A DNA stretch of 64,000 nt from Bacteroidia bacterium (GTDB lineage Bacteria > Bacteroidota > Bacteroidia > J057): contig JAUIGE010000019.1 of the NCBI GenBank assembly GCA_030430205.1, positions 69,928 to 133,927 on the forward strand, in the 5' to 3' direction. The translations under genes were made by a program, and so were the position numbers. Of the stretch, positions 13,337 through 20,524 are shown one piece after another; the stretch's first letter is position 1; the number at the start of each line of letters is the position of its first letter. The notes beneath the pieces are model-generated. The model saw nothing but the letters and a program-made list of their open reading frames with translations. It was not told the DNA's origin and did not search any database.

Positions 13337-14788
13337 ATGAAAATGAAAACCGTACTCCGACTCATGCTCCTTGCCATCCTGCTTATTGAGATTCCCCATC
13401 TGACATTTTCGCAGAACAATAAGGCATCACAGAAAACGCGTGTCATCGTCACCAGTGACGGAGAGATTGATGACCAGTGCTCTATGGTGCGCTTTCTGCT
13501 CTATGCCAATGAATGGGATATTGAGGGAATCATTACTTCCAGTTCCCAATACCACTGGCAAGGGCATCATTGGCCTGGGGATGACTGGATTGAGCCATAC
13601 CTGGATGCTTATGCACAGGTTTATCCCAATCTGGTGAAACATGATCCGAGCTACCCAACGCCAGCTTTCCTACGTGAGCGTAGCCTGCTGGGCAATGTGA
13701 AGGCAGAAGGTGAGATGGACGAGATCACGCCCGGCTCCCAGCACATAGTCAGGGTACTCCTGGACGAATCGGATGATCGTCCGATATGGGTACAAGCCTG
13801 GGGCGGCACAAACACGATCGCCCGGGCGCTCAAAACGATCGAGGAGGAACATCCCGAAAAAATGGCAGAAGTGGCAAAAAAACTACGTTTCTTCTTTATC
13901 TGGGAACAGGACATAAGCTTCCAGGATTACATCCGGCCACATTGGGGGAAATACCAGATTCCGACCATCATTTCGGATCAGTTTGAGGCGATCGCCTATA
14001 GGTGGCAGCGGGTTCAGCCCGTGGAAATGCAGCCCTACTTCGAAGGAGCCTGGATGAAGAAAAATATCCTGGAAAACCATGGCGCGCTATGCTCGCTCTA
14101 CCAAGCCCTTGAAAATGGGAATTTTCGCTCGGAAGGCGATTCTCCGGCATTTCTGCATACCATCCCCACAGGCTTGCGGAGCTTGGAATCGCCCGATTGG
14201 GGCGGTTGGGGCGGACGCTATGTGCGGGTGCGGGAGAATACATGGCTTGACTCTGTGCCTGTGGCAGATTATGTGTACCCAGAGGGAAGATGGTATGGAA
14301 ACACGGGTTGGGGACGAAATAGCTTACGCGAAGGCACCACCACAACCGAAGAGCAGCGCAAGGAATATTTTAAGCCGATTTGGCGTTGGACCGATGCGAT
14401 GCAAAATGATTTTGCCGCACGGGCGGACTGGTGTGTAAATTCCTTTGAGGAATCCAACCATCCACCGATTCCAAAACTTGATCATGATGAACAACTCTCT
14501 GCAAAAATGGGGAAACGCGTTAAGGTAAGCGCAAAAGCTTCCTCCGATCCTGACGGAGACACACTTTCCTACAACTGGTTTTACCATAAAGAACCCGGCA
14601 CCTTCAAAACATCTTCTTCGGGAATCGGCCTTCCTCTTAGGATAAAAAATGCAAACAAGGCCCGGGCATCCTTTGTAGTTCCAAAGCATGCTGTTCCAGG
14701 CACATTGCATATCATCTGTGCTGTCACAGATCAGGGCACGCCAGCGATTACCCGCTATGTGCGAGTGATTATTACCGTTGAAGAATAG
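13337..14788 (+). CDS. DUF1593 (Sde182-type nucleoside-hydrolase-like domain) protein with a C-terminal Ig-like domain, secreted
   Basis: The track ORF starts at TTG 13310. ATG 13337 gives a signal peptide. The N-terminal acidic motif is VTSDGEIDDQCSMVRFLLYANEWDIEG. The C-terminal part has SDPDGDTLSYNW Ig/PKD-like character. Confidence 0.7.
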   Translation: MKMKTVLRLMLLAILLIEIPHLTFSQNNKASQKTRVIVTSDGEIDDQCSMVRFLLYANEWDIEGIITSSSQYHWQGHHWPGDDWIEPYLDAYAQVYPNLVKHDPSYPTPAFLRERSLLGNVKAEGEMDEITPGSQHIVRVLLDESDDRPIWVQAWGGTNTIARALKTIEEEHPEKMAEVAKKLRFFFIWEQDISFQDYIRPHWGKYQIPTIISDQFEAIAYRWQRVQPVEMQPYFEGAWMKKNILENHGALCSLYQALENGNFRSEGDSPAFLHTIPTGLRSLESPDWGGWGGRYVRVRENTWLDSVPVADYVYPEGRWYGNTGWGRNSLREGTTTTEEQRKEYFKPIWRWTDAMQNDFAARADWCVNSFEESNHPPIPKLDHDEQLSAKMGKRVKVSAKASSDPDGDTLSYNWFYHKEPGTFKTSSSGIGLPLRIKNANKARASFVVPKHAVPGTLHIICAVTDQGTPAITRYVRVIITVEE

Positions 14789-14793
14789 GCAGG

Positions 14794-17679: not shown

Positions 17680-17701
17680 TTTTCATCGCCGATTGGGAGG
17701 C

Positions 17702-20524
17702 ATGGCAAACGCTACTTACCTAAAAAATCATATGAAAACTTCCACTCATTACTTTGCGGGACTGCTATCAGGATTAATGAATCAGCACAGATCCCTCCTG
17801 CTGGTCCTTCTTGTTTTTCCATTTAGCACAAGCCTAACGGCCCAGGAGGATGCACCAGAACGAATTCCCAAGTATCCTATTCCCTATGAATACCCTACAG
17901 TTGACGGTATCAAAGATGTGCTACATCGCGTGCGTCGCTATTATGAATCTAGCAGCCCCCAAAAAATTGTCCATGCAGAAACAGGCAAAGAGATCACAAA
18001 TTTTTCAAAACTGAACCCGCATGCGCAGGTTTCAGAAGGCTTCTCAAGCGAGTGGAGTTACACGCATGGTGTGGTGCTTTCGGCCTTCGATTACATCGAA
18101 GATGTGACGGGCGATTCCAGCTTTTTTGCCAACAACACCCGCTTTTATGATTTTGTAATTGAGCACTTACCCTATTTTCGCAAGAATGCGGAGAAATATG
18201 GTACAAATGCAGGTGGATGGCATTCACTCACCGATATGCACGCCCTCGATGATTGCGGTTCCATCGGTGCAGCGATGATCAAAACCTATTTAAAAGACAA
18301 AAACGAGGACTACCTCGAACTGATCAATATCACGGCCGATTTTATTAGCAACAAACAATTCCGCCTTGAAGATGGCACCCTGGCGCGCCATCGCCCACAG
18401 TACCAATCCGTATGGGCAGATGATTTATACATGAGCGTGCCCTTCCTGGCAAATATGGGCAAACTTACGGGAGACAATGCATATTATGATGATGCAGTAA
18501 GGCAAGTTTTGCAAATGGCTGATCGGCTTTATATTCCCGGTAAAGAGCTATTTGATCACGGTTGGAACGTGACAGCGGGGGAGTATGATCCCCGTTTTTA
18601 CTGGGGCCGTGCAAACGGTTGGACGCTGATGACGATGGCAGAATTGCTCAGTATATTGCCGGAAGAATATCCGGGTAGGGATAAAATCCTGCATCTATAT
18701 CGCTCCATGATTCGCAGCCTTGCGGGTATACAGGACGGCACGGGTTTTTGGCACAATATGCTGGATAAATCAGATACCTACCTGGAAACCTCCTGCACCG
18801 CTATGTTTACTTTTGCTGTAGCAAAAGGCATCAATGAAGGCTGGATAAGCCATATTTATGGCCCTGTCGCGCTCACTGGCTGGAACGCCACCCAAAGCCG
18901 GGTGCTGAAAAATGGTGCCGTGGACGGCACCTGCGAAGGCACCACATTCGCTCATGACAATACCTATTATTACTACCGAGGAAAAAGCATTTACGCGACC
19001 CACGGCTATGGTCCGGTACTTTATGCCGGCGCTGAAATGATTCGCCTGCTACAAAACGATAAAATCGAAGTTCAGGCTAACAAAATCAATGCGCGTAACA
19101 GCACTTATCACTATCGCTTAAAAAGCGAATGGCCCAAGGAGGAAGCTACCCCATCCATCGCGCCAAAAGCGGATTCAAAACCCAGAATCATTGTCCTGAC
19201 AGACATTGAAAATGAGCCCGATGATGCCATGTCTCTGGTTCGGTTTTTAACCTATGCCAATCAATGGGATGTGGAAGGTCTGGTCGCTACGACCTCCATT
19301 CATCAACAAAACGAAATAGCCAGCTGGCGTATACGAGAGATTCTTGAAGCCTATGGAAAAGTAAGGGACAATCTCGAAAAACATGAAAAAGGATATCCGA
19401 CAGCGGATCATTTATTATCTCTGGTCAGAGAAGGGCGAAAAGATTATGGGATGCAGGCGGTTGGAAAAGGAATGGATTCAGAGGGTTCTGAATTAATCAT
19501 ACAAGCTGCTGACCGGGAGGATACGCGCCCAGTTTGGGTGCTTGTGTGGGGCGGACCCAATTGCCTTGCCCAGGCACTTTGGAAAGTACGTGCGACACGC
19601 ACGGAGCAGGAATTGCGGCAGTTTGTTTCTAAAATCAGGGTGTACACCATCTCCGATCAGGATGACAGTGGTCCCTGGATCAGAGCAGCGTTTCCTGAGC
19701 TTTTTTATATCGCCAGTCCTGGTTATCATCCCTTTGGCGGCTACCATCATGCTACCTGGACAGGGATCAGCGGAGATAAATTTCATGGCCGCTTTGCGGG
19801 CGGTAATTTTGAGATTGTCGACAATCTCTGGCTCGATCAGCACATTCGCAGCAAAGGGCCTCTGGGAGCGGAGTATCCATGGGCTAAATTTCTGATGGAA
19901 GGGGATTCTCCCAGTTTCATGTACCTCATTAATAATGGTCTGGGGGATCCAGACCATCCCGATTGGGGCAGCTGGGGCGGGCGCTATGAGTTTTACCAGC
20001 CGCGAACCGAAAAATGGTTCCTGCAAGCCGAAACCCGCCCACTTTGGAACAATGCCCAGGATGAAGTCTTCGGCACAGATAGCAGCTGGCATACCAGTAA
20101 CAAAGCCACCATTTGGCGTTGGCGGGAAGCTTATCAGAATGACTTTTCTGCACGCATGGACTGGACCATCAAGTCCTACAAAGAAGCAAATCACCCCCCC
20201 GTTCCCAAACTCGGTCATGAGCAGAAACTTATGGCAAAAGTTGGAGAACGCGTTGATTTAAGCGCAGCGGGTTCCTCCGATCCGGATGGAGACAAGCTGT
20301 CTTACAGATGGTTTTATTATGCCGAGCCCGGTACTTTTACCATCTCTACCGCGAGAAGCGGCGATCCGCTTACCATAGAAGATGCCGACAAGGCGAATGC
20401 CTGGTTTATCGTGCCCGAAAAAGCCAAAAGGCTGGGTACCATGCATCTCATCCTGGAGGTCACAGACCAGGGAACGCCTGCGCTTACCCGCTACAAGCGG
20501 GTGATTGTTACGATTACTCCATAA
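17702..20524 (+). CDS. Fusion protein: GH105/GH88-type unsaturated rhamnogalacturonyl hydrolase + DUF1593 module + Ig-like domain
   Basis: The track ORF starts at TTG 17693. In-frame ATGs are at 17702, 17732 and 17777, and 17777 gives the cleanest signal peptide. The N half has YteR-like character ([14 protein letters not shown]). From about 19180 onward the DUF1593 motif [28 protein letters not shown] appears, followed by a C-terminal [12 protein letters not shown]g-like domain. Confidence 0.8.

Follow-up and report, generated by a model that had tools for sequence, protein, structure and literature searches.

The three DUF1593 modules encoded by neighbouring genes of a pectin locus in the window (the whole 64-kb stretch of DNA that was analysed) appear on balance to be putative periplasmic Ca2+-dependent β-D-apiofuranosidases built on a nucleoside-hydrolase fold, for which we infer substrate, catalysis and residue roles. 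The target of the locus is most likely an apiose-decorated galacturonan, either of the apiogalacturonan (zosterin/lemnan) type or in RG-II-derived fragments. If this reading is correct, the modules represent a novel enzyme type that cuts apiose from plant pectin. An apiose operon in the same window, and its comparative link to DUF1593, are new in this analysis.

DUF1593 proteins of the pectin locus

The first protein (P1, 483 aa; 13337-14788, plus strand; alternative TTG start at 13310) consists of a type-I signal peptide and a standalone module, in which a nucleoside-hydrolase-like (NH-like) domain (nt 13439-14221; PF07632, aa 35-295, E = 1.2e-74, 252 bits) is followed by an Ig-like domain (nt 14519-14779; PF21027, aa 395-481). 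PF07632 is the former DUF1593, renamed Sde182_NH-like, and has a gathering cut-off of 26.8 bits. The N-terminal half of P2 (925 aa; 14794-17571, minus strand) carries a signal peptide and a second module (16147..17571; NH-like domain nt 16684-17466, PF07632 aa 36-296, E = 4.9e-72; Ig-like domain nt 16147-16389, PF21027 aa 395-475), and its C-terminal half is a pectate lyase domain of PL1 subfamily 2 (PL1_2) type (14794..16131), of which the 445 residues match the PL1_2 lyase PfPL1 (PDB 9BUJ) by phmmer with E = 5e-57, score 149 bits with the NCBIfam model PelZ, under its cut-off, and have no match in Pfam. P3 (940 aa; 17702-20524, plus strand) begins with a signal peptide and a GH105-type unsaturated (rhamno)galacturonyl hydrolase (17702..19051, domain nt 18026-19051; PF07470 (GH88/GH105), aa 109-450, E = 4.9e-75) that matches PDB 3K11 (E = 1e-106) as well as YteR and other GH105 structures, and ends with the third module (19184..20524; NH-like domain nt 19184-19987, PF07632 aa 495-762, E = 6.6e-114; Ig-like domain nt 20252-20515, PF21027 aa 851-938). 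The modules of P1 and P2 are 66% identical and form one subfamily (A); that of P3 shares 41% identity with P1 and falls into a separate subfamily (B).

These Pfam and PDB matches bear out the architecture described in an earlier note on this DNA, with DUF1593 followed by an Ig-like domain in each of three neighbouring genes, one copy alone, one N-terminal to PL1 and one C-terminal to GH105; the profile search that the note had proposed places all three modules in PF07632. The genes are adjacent, as the note had it, but not codirectional: P1 and P2 are convergent and 5 bp apart, and P2 and P3 are divergent, with 130 bp between them. Because the DUF1593 proteins have type-I signal peptides without a lipobox, they are predicted to be periplasmic, a location that fits the importer described below, since binding-protein-dependent uptake requires free monosaccharide there.

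The combination of PL1_2 lyase and GH105 follows the same logic as P. fuliginea PfPL1, which is reported to be active on apiogalacturonan, and the homogalacturonan PUL of Bacteroides thetaiotaomicron, but unlike in those loci, the lyase and GH105 of the window are covalently fused to DUF1593 modules. Between the apiose operon and P1, a gene for an FG-GAP repeat protein (6577..8184, plus strand; Pfam FG-GAP_3), with a homologue in only one related locus (L042), separates the kinase gene from an outer-membrane glycan import pair on the minus strand, SusD (8232-9797; Pfam SusD_RagB) and SusC (9815-12991; Pfam Plug, TonB_dep_Rec and CarboxypepD_reg). The carbohydrate locus ends with a gene whose product joins a GH63/MGH1-like domain to a complete GH78 α-L-rhamnosidase (21601..26145, plus strand; Pfam, NCBIfam). 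Profile search found no GH140 apiosidase (PF13204) in the whole 64-kb window.

An apiose operon and its recurrence with DUF1593

The window opens with an operon for apiose uptake and catabolism, all on the plus strand, that the earlier note had missed. An aptB-like C-terminal subunit of a split transketolase (2..973; Pfam Transket_pyr and Transketolase_C), a candidate apulose-4-phosphate transketolase, is 39% identical to aptB of E. coli SE15 and 80% identical to its counterparts in the Algoriphagus operons; the gene for its aptA-like partner is directly upstream of the window (52% identity to E. coli aptA for the gene on contig L003). Next are four genes, recognized by Pfam, of a periplasmic-binding-protein-dependent ABC sugar importer (990..5062), a candidate apiose importer comprising an RbsB-like binding protein (990-1943), DUF2291 (1940-2569), an ATPase (2571-4091) and a permease (4088-5062), which, DUF2291 included, parallel the SE15 apiose cluster at 35-44% identity. 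An aplK-like FGGY-family kinase (5069..6550; Pfam FGGY_N/C), the candidate apulose kinase, is 38% identical to E. coli aplK over 496 aa; in NCBIfam it matches only at the level of the GlpK subfamily, short of the equivalog model.

A D-apiose catabolic gene cluster was reportedly described by Carter et al. in 2018. The cluster of E. coli ST131/SE15 has aptA/aptB, an aplK-like FGGY kinase, RbsB-like and DUF2291 proteins and an ABC ATPase and permease in common with the window operon, and the whole gene set, with the upstream aptA, corresponds to ECSF_RS02670-02715 at 35-52% identity. By this synteny, at that level of identity and with no equivalog model matched, the aptA/B and kinase genes are candidate orthologues of apiose enzymes. 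Unlike the E. coli cluster, the window operon belongs to a Bacteroidota SusC/D locus that also encodes pectin enzymes, and the likely isomerase is a FucIso-like protein in orthologous operons versus two SDR oxidoreductases in E. coli. E. coli strains tested with this cluster use D-apiose as sole carbon source (PMC13001218).

About 120 other loci in all, either genome loci seeded on orthologues or metagenome loci seeded on aptB, were compared. The forward test started from P1 orthologues in at least five phyla (Bacteroidota, Planctomycetota, Verrucomicrobiota, Acidobacteriota, KSB1, Gammaproteobacteria and one Halanaerobiaceae MAG) and covered 79 genome loci that contain them, with neighbours grouped by unbiased clustering. 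Standalone PL1_2 homologues of the P2 lyase half were neighbours in 46 of the 79 loci, GH140 apiosidases in 22 and a GH140-like family in 14 (either in 30), aptA/B in 20, FGGY kinases and FucIso-like isomerases in 18 each, PL10 in 15, GH105 in 13 and GH28 in 11; at least one of the apiose-catabolism, GH140 or pectin-backbone families was present in 68. GH140 was missing from 11 of the 20 apt-containing loci. This context, with the co-occurrence of PL1_2 and GH105 that the note had suggested tabulating, strongly supports its proposal of a shared polymer substrate for DUF1593, the lyase and GH105. Among the pectic furanoses it had offered, apiose is upheld by the window operon and by the recurrence of GH140 and apt genes beside orthologues; arabinofuranose and aceric acid are not singled out.

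Most DUF1593 copies are standalone periplasmic proteins of 470-490 aa, and the genes are arrayed in tandem, 2-7 copies drawn from three conserved subfamilies (A, B and C) with 64-81% identity within a subfamily across phyla. Subfamily A is directly beside GH140 or its relative in 15 loci and, in 25, adjoins PL1_2 on the same strand (median gap 29 bp); fusions in other loci join A to PL1 (L077, L078) or to GH28 (L034), or PL10 to C and A (L053). The operon of Algoriphagus jejuensis (L005) consists of apiose catabolism and three DUF1593 genes and nothing else (DeoR-FucIso-aptA-aptB-SBP-DUF2291-ABC-permease-FGGY-A-A-B, with unrelated peptidase genes next), DUF1593 being the sole candidate glycosidase, as it is in two loci (L064, L082) where apt genes are interleaved with DUF1593 genes. 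Family-wide domain partners include Big_2, PKD, LamG, CBM6, PA14, SLH, dockerin and T9SS tails, and in such multidomain relatives DUF1593 is the sole candidate catalytic domain. In the reverse test, which took aptB as the seed and covered 44 metagenome loci of 8 kb or more, DUF1593 was the most frequent neighbour outside the core pathway and regulators (11 loci, versus 8 for GH140 or GH140-like).

Active site on a nucleoside-hydrolase fold

The nucleoside-hydrolase likeness that the earlier note had read from an acidic motif was confirmed by Foldseek: the AF2 model of P1 (pLDDT 77, pTM 0.80) matched 2YHG best (E = 1e-32, TM 0.79), followed by RihA, IAG-NH and riboside hydrolases with probability of about 1.0. 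The motif is VTSDGEIDDQCS in P1 (nt 13448-13483), VTSDGEVDDECS in P2 (nt 17422-17457, minus strand) and a stretch of 13 residues in P3 (nt 19196-19234); the letters quoted in the note are correct, but the full DxDxxxDD signature is not present: Thr or Leu replaces the first Asp, and two additional residues occur in the P3 type. The predicted active-site residues are D41, D45, D46, E266 and D268 in P1, equivalent to D42, D46, D47, E267 and D269 in P2 and D501, D507, D508, E733 and D735 in P3. In an alignment to RihA that is not significant at residue level by sequence (hhalign probability <1%), D41, D45, D46 and D268 correspond to D10, D14, D15 and D240, and G267 to the catalytic His239. The four Asp residues are invariant in about 160 copies of all subfamilies, every copy has Gly at the position of the His that protonates the nucleobase, and E266 is kept as Glu in subfamilies A and B and is Met in C.

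DUF1593 resembles the PF01156 nucleoside hydrolases (RihA/B/C, C. fasciculata IU-NH, T. vivax IAG-NH) in fold, in its invariant equivalents of their Ca2+-binding and water-activating Asp residues and in a presumed substrate that, like ribosides, is a β-D-furanoside with a cis-2,3-diol. It differs in lacking a profile match (P1-P3 gave nothing against PF01156 at E <= 0.01), the first Asp of DxDxxxDD and the leaving-group His, in being secreted, and in the proposed bond, which is O-glycosidic, not N-glycosidic. The structure 2YHG, reportedly of the C-terminal region of Sde_0182 from Saccharophagus degradans (Hehemann, Marsters and Boraston, 2011), is the only PDB entry for the family. No assigned activity for the family was found in Pfam (2025), NCBIfam (June 2026), the PDB or full-text literature (CAZy was outside the search), in agreement with the note. 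Sde_0182, the founding member of PF07632/PF21027, matches P1 by sequence with E = 1.6e-57, has an NH-like domain and β-sandwich like the window copies, and shares a TDxxxxPDD motif with the P3 module, but carries carbohydrate-binding modules, whereas each window copy stands alone or is fused to PL1_2 or GH105 in an apiose/pectin locus; unlike it, the P1/P2 subfamily has a motif loop shorter by 2 residues and conserves an insertion some 40 residues long (aa 284-323). The Ig-like domain reportedly sits where the dimerization interface would be, blocking oligomerization (PMC8910321).

Proposed role and alternatives

β-D-Apiofuranose is 3-C-hydroxymethyl-β-D-erythrofuranose and would suit a nucleoside-hydrolase site because β-D-ribofuranose has the same anomeric configuration and cis-2,3-diol. 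In the proposed mechanism, SusC/D would take up apiosylated oligogalacturonides, and the DUF1593 modules would remove β-D-apiofuranosyl side groups from galacturonan, possibly cleaving Api-(1->3')-Api links too. The PL1_2 lyase attached to one A-type module would thereby gain access to the backbone, and the GH105 attached to the B-type module to the unsaturated end. As in IU-nucleoside hydrolases, D46, D268 and a backbone carbonyl would coordinate Ca2+, which would chelate the cis-2,3-diol, with D41 activating water; because the His position is Gly, E266 is the candidate acid for a sugar leaving group. Free apiose would be captured by the RbsB-like protein, imported by the ABC transporter and converted to apulose by an isomerase whose gene, in orthologous operons, sits upstream of the part present in the window. 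The FGGY kinase would then phosphorylate the apulose, and the AptA/AptB transketolase would cleave it. Apiose release from pectin, the role proposed here for DUF1593, is that of the unrelated GH140 β-D-apiosidase family (BT1012 of B. thetaiotaomicron; PF13204 'Apiosidase'), which has a (β/α)8-barrel fold.

As GH140 or GH140-like proteins are present in 30 of the 79 loci, DUF1593 may have another role in apiose-pectin breakdown. Hydrolysis of a different bond (L-arabinofuranose, aceric acid, RG-II residues on apiose, or an ester), with GH140 freeing the apiose, is unlikely in our estimation; the frequent adjacency to GH140, the existence of three or more conserved subfamilies, which suggests several distinct specificities, and the GH78 rhamnosidase, which suggests a substrate beyond plain apiogalacturonan, speak for it, but DUF1593 occurs without GH140 in the window and in over half of the apt-containing loci, outnumbers it around aptB, and leaves the minimal A. 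jejuensis operon no alternative route to free apiose. Moreover, the cis-2,3-diol β-D-furanoside that the nucleoside-hydrolase site recognizes is present in apiose and absent from L-arabinofuranose. No more probable is a role as non-catalytic Ca2+-dependent furanose (apiose) binding modules, tethering or presenting apiosylated pectin to their fusion partners, the lyase and GH105, or serving as periplasmic oligosaccharide-binding proteins. Sde_0182, the one family member that has been studied, is inactive on purine and pyrimidine nucleosides, retains a Ca2+ ion in its crystal structure and has been interpreted as a furanose-binding module, and the NH-like protein XopQ, which has no nucleosidase activity, binds ADP-ribose at the equivalent of the catalytic site (review PMC8910321); because of these two proteins, retention of the acidic cluster by itself is no argument for catalysis over binding, contrary to the earlier note. 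Binding modules would likewise be fused to PL1 and GH105, and the historical family name is 'cellulose-binding protein'. Against this, standalone copies in tandem arrays are unusual for binding modules, in multidomain relatives DUF1593 itself bears CBM6, PA14, dockerin and SLH in the manner of a catalytic domain, the equivalent of the general-base Asp is invariant in every subfamily, and the three apiose operons with no candidate glycosidase besides DUF1593 already own a binding protein. Such operons, and proteins that offer no possible catalytic domain other than DUF1593, are the better arguments for putative catalysis.

Handling of free or bound apiose without glycosidic cleavage (mutarotation, ring handling before import, or release from borate diesters) would accord with an association with the apiose pathway as such, and a Ca2+ site might bind the cis-diol that carries borate in RG-II, but we consider it improbable: such activities are without precedent on this fold, fusions to PL1, PL10, GH28 and GH105 indicate polymer or oligomer substrates, and several paralogues per locus are hard to square with a monosaccharide-handling step. 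Least probable is that they are true nucleoside or riboside hydrolases which scavenge ribose and lie in a pectin locus only incidentally; the fold and the RbsB-like binding protein agree with this, but the absence of PF01156 matches at E <= 0.01, the Gly in place of the catalytic His, the inactivity of Sde_0182 on nucleosides and the pectin/apiose context of most loci do not.

Downstream of P3 and in the same direction is a gene for a DUF6807 protein (20536..21555, plus strand; PF14100, E = 1.6e-68), which is possibly part of the system. DUF1593-DUF6807 fusions are known from other loci (P0066, L053).

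Domain architecture of the DUF1593 proteins and the adjacent putative apiose operon

Three adjacent genes encode proteins in each of which the Pfam search found one copy of PF07632 (DUF1593) followed by one copy of the Ig-like domain PF21027: P1 (13337-14788, + strand, 483 aa), P2 (14794-17571, - strand, 925 aa) and P3 (17702-20524, + strand, 940 aa). The PF07632 scores of 252, 243 and 380 bits, respectively (E-values of about 1e-72 to 7e-114), against a gathering score of 26.8 place all three in the family, as the earlier note had predicted, and PF21027 scores 85-106 bits; the acidic motifs quoted in that note were also located in all three proteins. 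P1 matches Sde_0182 (PDB 2YHG), the only solved member of the family, over aa 33-481 (phmmer E 1.6e-57), and its C-terminal domain is all-beta in an AlphaFold2 model. The genes are consecutive, as had been stated, but they do not run in one direction: P1 and P2 are convergent with a spacing of 5 bp, and P2 and P3 are divergent with a spacing of 130 bp. Likewise, the three modules are the same in family but not in kind, those of P1 and P2 being 66% identical and that of P3 only 41% identical to P1. An ORF of 241 aa (19493-20218, - strand) lies antisense within the P3 gene and was rejected as a gene, being most likely a shadow ORF.

Both of the fusions to pectinolytic domains were confirmed. The C-terminal 445 residues of P2 gave no match in the Pfam search, matched NCBIfam PelZ weakly (149 bits, under the equivalog cut-off) and matched the PL1_2 lyase PfPL1 (PDB 9BUJ) with an E-value of 5e-57; by sequence, this half of P2 is a putative lyase of PL1 subfamily 2. 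P3 carries PF07470 (GH88/GH105; 253 bits, E 5e-75) and matches the solved structures 3K11, 3QWT, 1NC5 (YteR) and 4CE7, the best PDB matches being the only basis on which GH105 was chosen over GH88. Because all three proteins have type-I signal peptides without a lipobox cysteine, they are probably periplasmic.

The earlier note labelled this locus a pectin PUL, and the locus holds more. A putative system for apiose uptake and catabolism is encoded by bases 2-6550: one subunit of a split transketolase (the C-terminal one), an RbsB-like binding protein, a DUF2291 protein, the ATPase and permease of an ABC importer, and an FGGY kinase. The N-terminal transketolase subunit (aptA) is located directly upstream on a 2.2-kb metagenome contig that carries a gene identical to the first of the window, so that the whole gene set of a D-apiose cluster (transketolase pair, FGGY kinase, RbsB-like protein, DUF2291 protein, ATPase and permease) is found in one operon. 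The cluster of E. coli SE15 comprises aptA, aptB, aplK and genes for a binding protein, a DUF2291 protein and ABC components, to which the operon proteins are 35-52% identical. The tested E. coli strains that carry such a cluster, for which that of SE15 is the reference, grow on apiose, and growth on apiose has been demonstrated only for cluster-carrying E. coli strains and Pectobacterium (PMC13001218). Twenty genome loci and more than 30 metagenome loci share the gene order of the operon, and on this synteny the transketolase and kinase genes are candidate orthologs of the apiose enzymes. Operons of Algoriphagus species, 80-85% identical to this one, have a FucIso-like isomerase and a DeoR regulator at the position equivalent to upstream of base 1, where the enzyme converting apiose to apulose would be located; this level of identity points to a member of the Cyclobacteriaceae as the probable source of the window. 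Downstream of the operon are genes for an FG-GAP protein, SusD, SusC, the three DUF1593 proteins, a DUF6807 protein and a GH63-like/GH78 fusion; beyond approximately 26.1 kb, the genes of the window are unrelated to the locus.

No gene of GH140 (the known apiosidase family), PL10 or GH28 was found anywhere within the 64-kb window. The GH140 catalytic domain (PF13204) had no Pfam match in P1, P2 or P3, and an HMM made from the GH140 proteins of neighbouring loci had zero matches in the window, which rules out GH140 as the apiosidase of this stretch, though a copy may be present elsewhere in the genome.

Subfamilies and genomic neighbourhoods of the DUF1593 family

The PF07632 family is large and is represented in six or more phyla; an exhaustive search (E <= 1e-3) recovered 5,692 clusters of it at 50% identity. 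Most relatives stand alone, with a length of about 475 aa, and are labelled only as DUF1593 or "nucleoside hydrolase-like domain-containing protein", and proteins of the P1 type and of the P3 type are each 64-81% identical across phyla. The genomic context was examined in 79 genome loci extending 10 kb to either side of orthologs of P1, from Bacteroidota, Planctomycetota, Verrucomicrobiota, Acidobacteriota, KSB1, Gammaproteobacteria and a Halanaerobiaceae MAG. Tandem arrays of two to seven DUF1593 copies are usual (54 of 79 loci), and three main groups were distinguished at 50% identity: subfamily A, which includes P1 and the P2 module and is present in all 79 loci; subfamily B, which includes the P3 module (32 loci); and subfamily C, which has no member in the window (27 loci, e.g. 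L039, L070 and L079). A further split of subfamily A into P1-like and P2-like lineages, with only the latter beside PL1, received no signal (Fisher p = 0.5). Seven DUF1593 genes are present in a single locus of a member of the Spirosomataceae (L056), and three proteins of 1,600-2,100 aa (P0248, P0251 and P0264) contain six or seven DUF1593 stretches each.

The neighbouring ORFs of the 79 loci were clustered without labels, and the largest clusters were annotated only afterwards. The most frequent was the PL1_2 lyase (46 loci), followed by GH140 apiosidase (PF13204 with PF12904; 22 loci), aptA/aptB (20), FGGY kinase (18), FucIso-like isomerase (18), PL10 (15), a GH140-like protein of DUF5060-Apiosidase-DUF5605 architecture (14), GH105 (13) and GH28 (11). 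At least one of these pectin-backbone, GH140 or apiose-pathway families is present in 68 of the 79 loci. The apiose operon is found in 25% of loci, compared to approximately 0.5% expected by chance per random 20-kb window if there is one such operon per 5-Mb genome. In 25 loci a subfamily A gene and a PL1_2 gene are neighbours on the same strand, separated by a median of 29 bp, and fusions occur elsewhere of subfamily A with PL1 (L077 and L078), of subfamily A with GH28 (L034) and of PL10 with subfamilies C and A (L053); thus, the fusions in the window join, in Rosetta-stone fashion, genes that elsewhere form a conserved pair.

The association was also found from the opposite direction, in a metagenome scan seeded on aptB that yielded 44 loci of 8 kb or more, with a conserved core of FucIso-aptA-aptB-(SBP-DUF2291-ABC-permease)-FGGY. 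Once this core and the regulators are set aside, no neighbour family is more frequent than DUF1593, which is present in 11 of the 44 loci; GH140 or GH140-like genes are present in eight. Some of the aptB-seeded loci also contain genes of the PdxA and DHDPS families and of the DUF1537 type (SBD_N) (L163:12165-14209; L125:1-870), and these may provide an oxidative route for apiose in addition to that through the transketolase; PdxA and DUF1537-type genes belong to the oxidative alternatives for apiose catabolism described by Carter et al. 2018.

In several operons DUF1593 is the only candidate glycosidase. GH140 is absent within 10 kb in 11 of the 20 apt-containing loci. In Algoriphagus jejuensis (L005), 12 co-directional genes are ordered DeoR-FucIso-aptA-aptB-SBP-DUF2291-ABC-permease-FGGY-A-A-B, and are followed on the opposite strand by unrelated genes (peptidase, ion channel and PhzF), and in two MAGs, of Halanaerobiaceae (L064) and of Acidobacteriota (L082), DUF1593 genes lie in between the apt genes. 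An importer that depends on a binding protein requires free monosaccharide in the periplasm; judging by their gene content, these three operons would have no source of free periplasmic apiose besides their DUF1593 candidates. Among 54 multidomain representatives of the family, the partner domains are Big_2, PKD, Laminin_G_3, CBM6, PA14, SLH, dockerin and T9SS sorting domains, with one GH88/105 and one pectinesterase. Appendages of this kind are normally joined to a catalytic domain, and DUF1593 is the sole candidate catalytic domain in most of the 54.

Fold, conserved residues and proposed activity

The AlphaFold2 model of P1, built from a 32-sequence alignment (pLDDT 77, pTM 0.80), was matched best by Foldseek to 2YHG (E 9.6e-33, TM 0.79), followed by E. 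coli RihA/YeiK, trypanosomal IAG-NH and Trichomonas and yeast riboside hydrolases (3G5I, 4I73, 8OIC, 1YOE and 3B9X; probability 0.98-1.0, E-values of about 1e-5 to 4e-4, TM only 0.3-0.48), with PKD-type domains matching the C-terminal part. P1 is thus predicted to have the nucleoside-hydrolase fold. At the level of sequence, P1, P2 and P3 had no match to PF01156 at E <= 0.01 in the Pfam search, a PDB profile search with a sequence alignment (E <= 10) returned 2YHG only and no nucleoside-hydrolase chain, and hhalign gave RihA and RihC a non-significant probability below 1%, though the alignment was colinear over the whole domain. Because these sequence alignments are not significant, the link to nucleoside hydrolases is made through the fold and the published structure.

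In inosine-uridine nucleoside hydrolases, a set of aspartates binds Ca2+ and the 2'- and 3'-hydroxyls of ribose and provides the general base, and a histidine protonates the nucleobase. Their C-terminal Ca2+ ligand, D242 in C. fasciculata and D240 in RihA, is preceded by the catalytic histidine. The resemblance to the DxDxxxDD signature noted earlier is partial: the last three aspartates are present (D41, D45 and D46 of P1, all invariant), but the first is replaced by Thr, Leu or Ser, and subfamily B has D-x5-DD. A low-stringency, non-significant hhalign mapping of P1 onto RihA pairs D41, D45, D46 and D268 with D10, D14, D15 and D240, G267 with His239 and WGGTNT (aa 155-160) with TGPQTN. About 160 copies, drawn from every subfamily, show no variation at D41, D45, D46, G267 and D268; thus, by this non-significant alignment, the C-terminal aspartate is retained as D268, and no catalytic histidine was found ahead of it, the position being occupied by the invariant glycine. 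Sde_0182 (2YHG) retains Ca2+, does not hydrolyse nucleosides and has been hypothesised to be a furanose-interacting module (2022 review, PMC8910321), and the loss of the histidine fits this reported inactivity. A carboxylate beside the lost histidine, E266, is invariant in subfamilies A and B and minor groups (Met in subfamily C), and is a plausible candidate acid for a sugar leaving group. Subfamily C keeps the Ca2+/base aspartates and has Glu in place of N159 and Pro-Asn in place of Q191-D192; together with the Met at E266, these changes may mean that the acid has moved or that the specificity is not that of the other subfamilies. Residues 284-323 of P1 (approximately 14186-14305) form a segment specific to subfamily A, rich in invariant Trp, Arg and Asp, for which the model has a pLDDT below 50; this segment may bind substrate as a loop that becomes ordered only with ligand.

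Beta-D-apiofuranose (3-C-hydroxymethyl-beta-D-erythrofuranose) resembles beta-D-ribofuranose with the hydroxymethyl group at C3 instead of C4, and the two furanosides share the anomeric configuration and the cis-2,3-diol, which in apiose binds borate in RG-II. As the nucleoside-hydrolase site grips a cis-2,3-diol through Ca2+, it would be pre-adapted to apiosides. The DUF1593 modules are proposed to remove, in the periplasm, the apiosyl (perhaps apiobiosyl) groups borne on O2/O3 of galacturonate. The backbone would then be open to the PL1_2 lyase and GH105, the fusion partners of two of the modules, and the freed apiose would pass to the adjacent importer and then to the AplK/AptAB pathway. 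The different apiosyl linkages might be divided among subfamilies A, B and C, with GH140 where present.

That the modules serve the utilization of apiose-containing pectin in some way is very probable; that they are apiose-releasing hydrolases is somewhat probable from gene context and residue conservation. GH140 co-occurs with DUF1593 in 38% of loci, so the target of DUF1593 might instead be another bond of that substrate. By analogy to XopQ, a nucleoside-hydrolase-like protein that binds, the modules may also be binders, to be weighed against their invariant aspartates and the appendages of the multidomain proteins. Beyond apiose release, it is a tentative suggestion, somewhat more doubtful than probable, that PF07632 constitutes a new family of glycoside hydrolases, beta-D-apiofuranosidases acting on O-glycosides by a Ca2+-assisted, nucleoside-hydrolase-type mechanism, with at least three subfamilies (A, B and C) specialized by linkage for apiogalacturonan and RG-II, and that it is the main microbial route by which the apiose-containing pectin of plants or seagrass feeds apiose catabolism in soils, sediments, oceans and guts.

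The DUF1593 domain, its fold and the "furanose" hypothesis are already published. The statement that the family has no assigned activity agrees with the full-text literature searched, in which none was found, and with Pfam (2025) and NCBIfam (June 2026), which give no functional name; absent from the literature searched are the multiply supported link to apiose, the conserved arrays of A, B and C paralogs, the conserved pairing with PL1_2 and any report of a nucleoside-hydrolase-type mechanism or fold for hydrolysis of O-glycosides. PF07632 has been without a function since the structure of 2011, and there is now a testable prediction of its substrate, products, metal, residues and gene partners. 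If the prediction is true, it supplies a missing step from apiose-rich pectins (zosterin of seagrass, lemnan of duckweed, and RG-II) to the recently defined pathways of apiose catabolism, helps to account for the recycling of seagrass-derived carbon and offers new enzymes for dismantling RG-II and apiogalacturonan, with a possible bearing on apiose use by gut Bacteroidales and the niche of apiose-positive E. coli lineages. Biochemical confirmation would establish a new glycoside hydrolase family and a metal-assisted O-glycosidase mechanism on the nucleoside-hydrolase fold.

Other genes of the window

The ABC importer with its binding protein and the split-transketolase pathway (2-6550, + strand) are embedded in a Bacteroidota SusC/D locus; in three Bacteroidales versions of the operon (L011, L055 and L060), a Sugar_transport/ureide-permease-like transporter takes the place of the ABC system. 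The FG-GAP repeat protein (6577-8184, + strand), encoded between the kinase gene and susD, is conserved only in an Arcticibacterium-like locus (L042). Directly after the P3 gene is that of a DUF6807 (PF14100) protein (20536-21555, + strand), and covalent fusions of DUF1593 and DUF6807 found elsewhere (P0066; L053:586-2976) suggest a functional link between these two uncharacterized families. The next gene (21601-26145, + strand) encodes a 1514-aa protein with a GH63/MGH1-like (alpha/alpha)6 domain (aa 68-442) and a complete GH78 alpha-L-rhamnosidase (aa 464-1480), of which the GH78 part has homologs in only five of the 79 related loci. Outside the carbohydrate locus, a 786-aa protein (42313-44673, + strand) has a C-terminal Peptidase_S74 domain (endosialidase chaperone), as is common for the tail fibres and spikes of phages.
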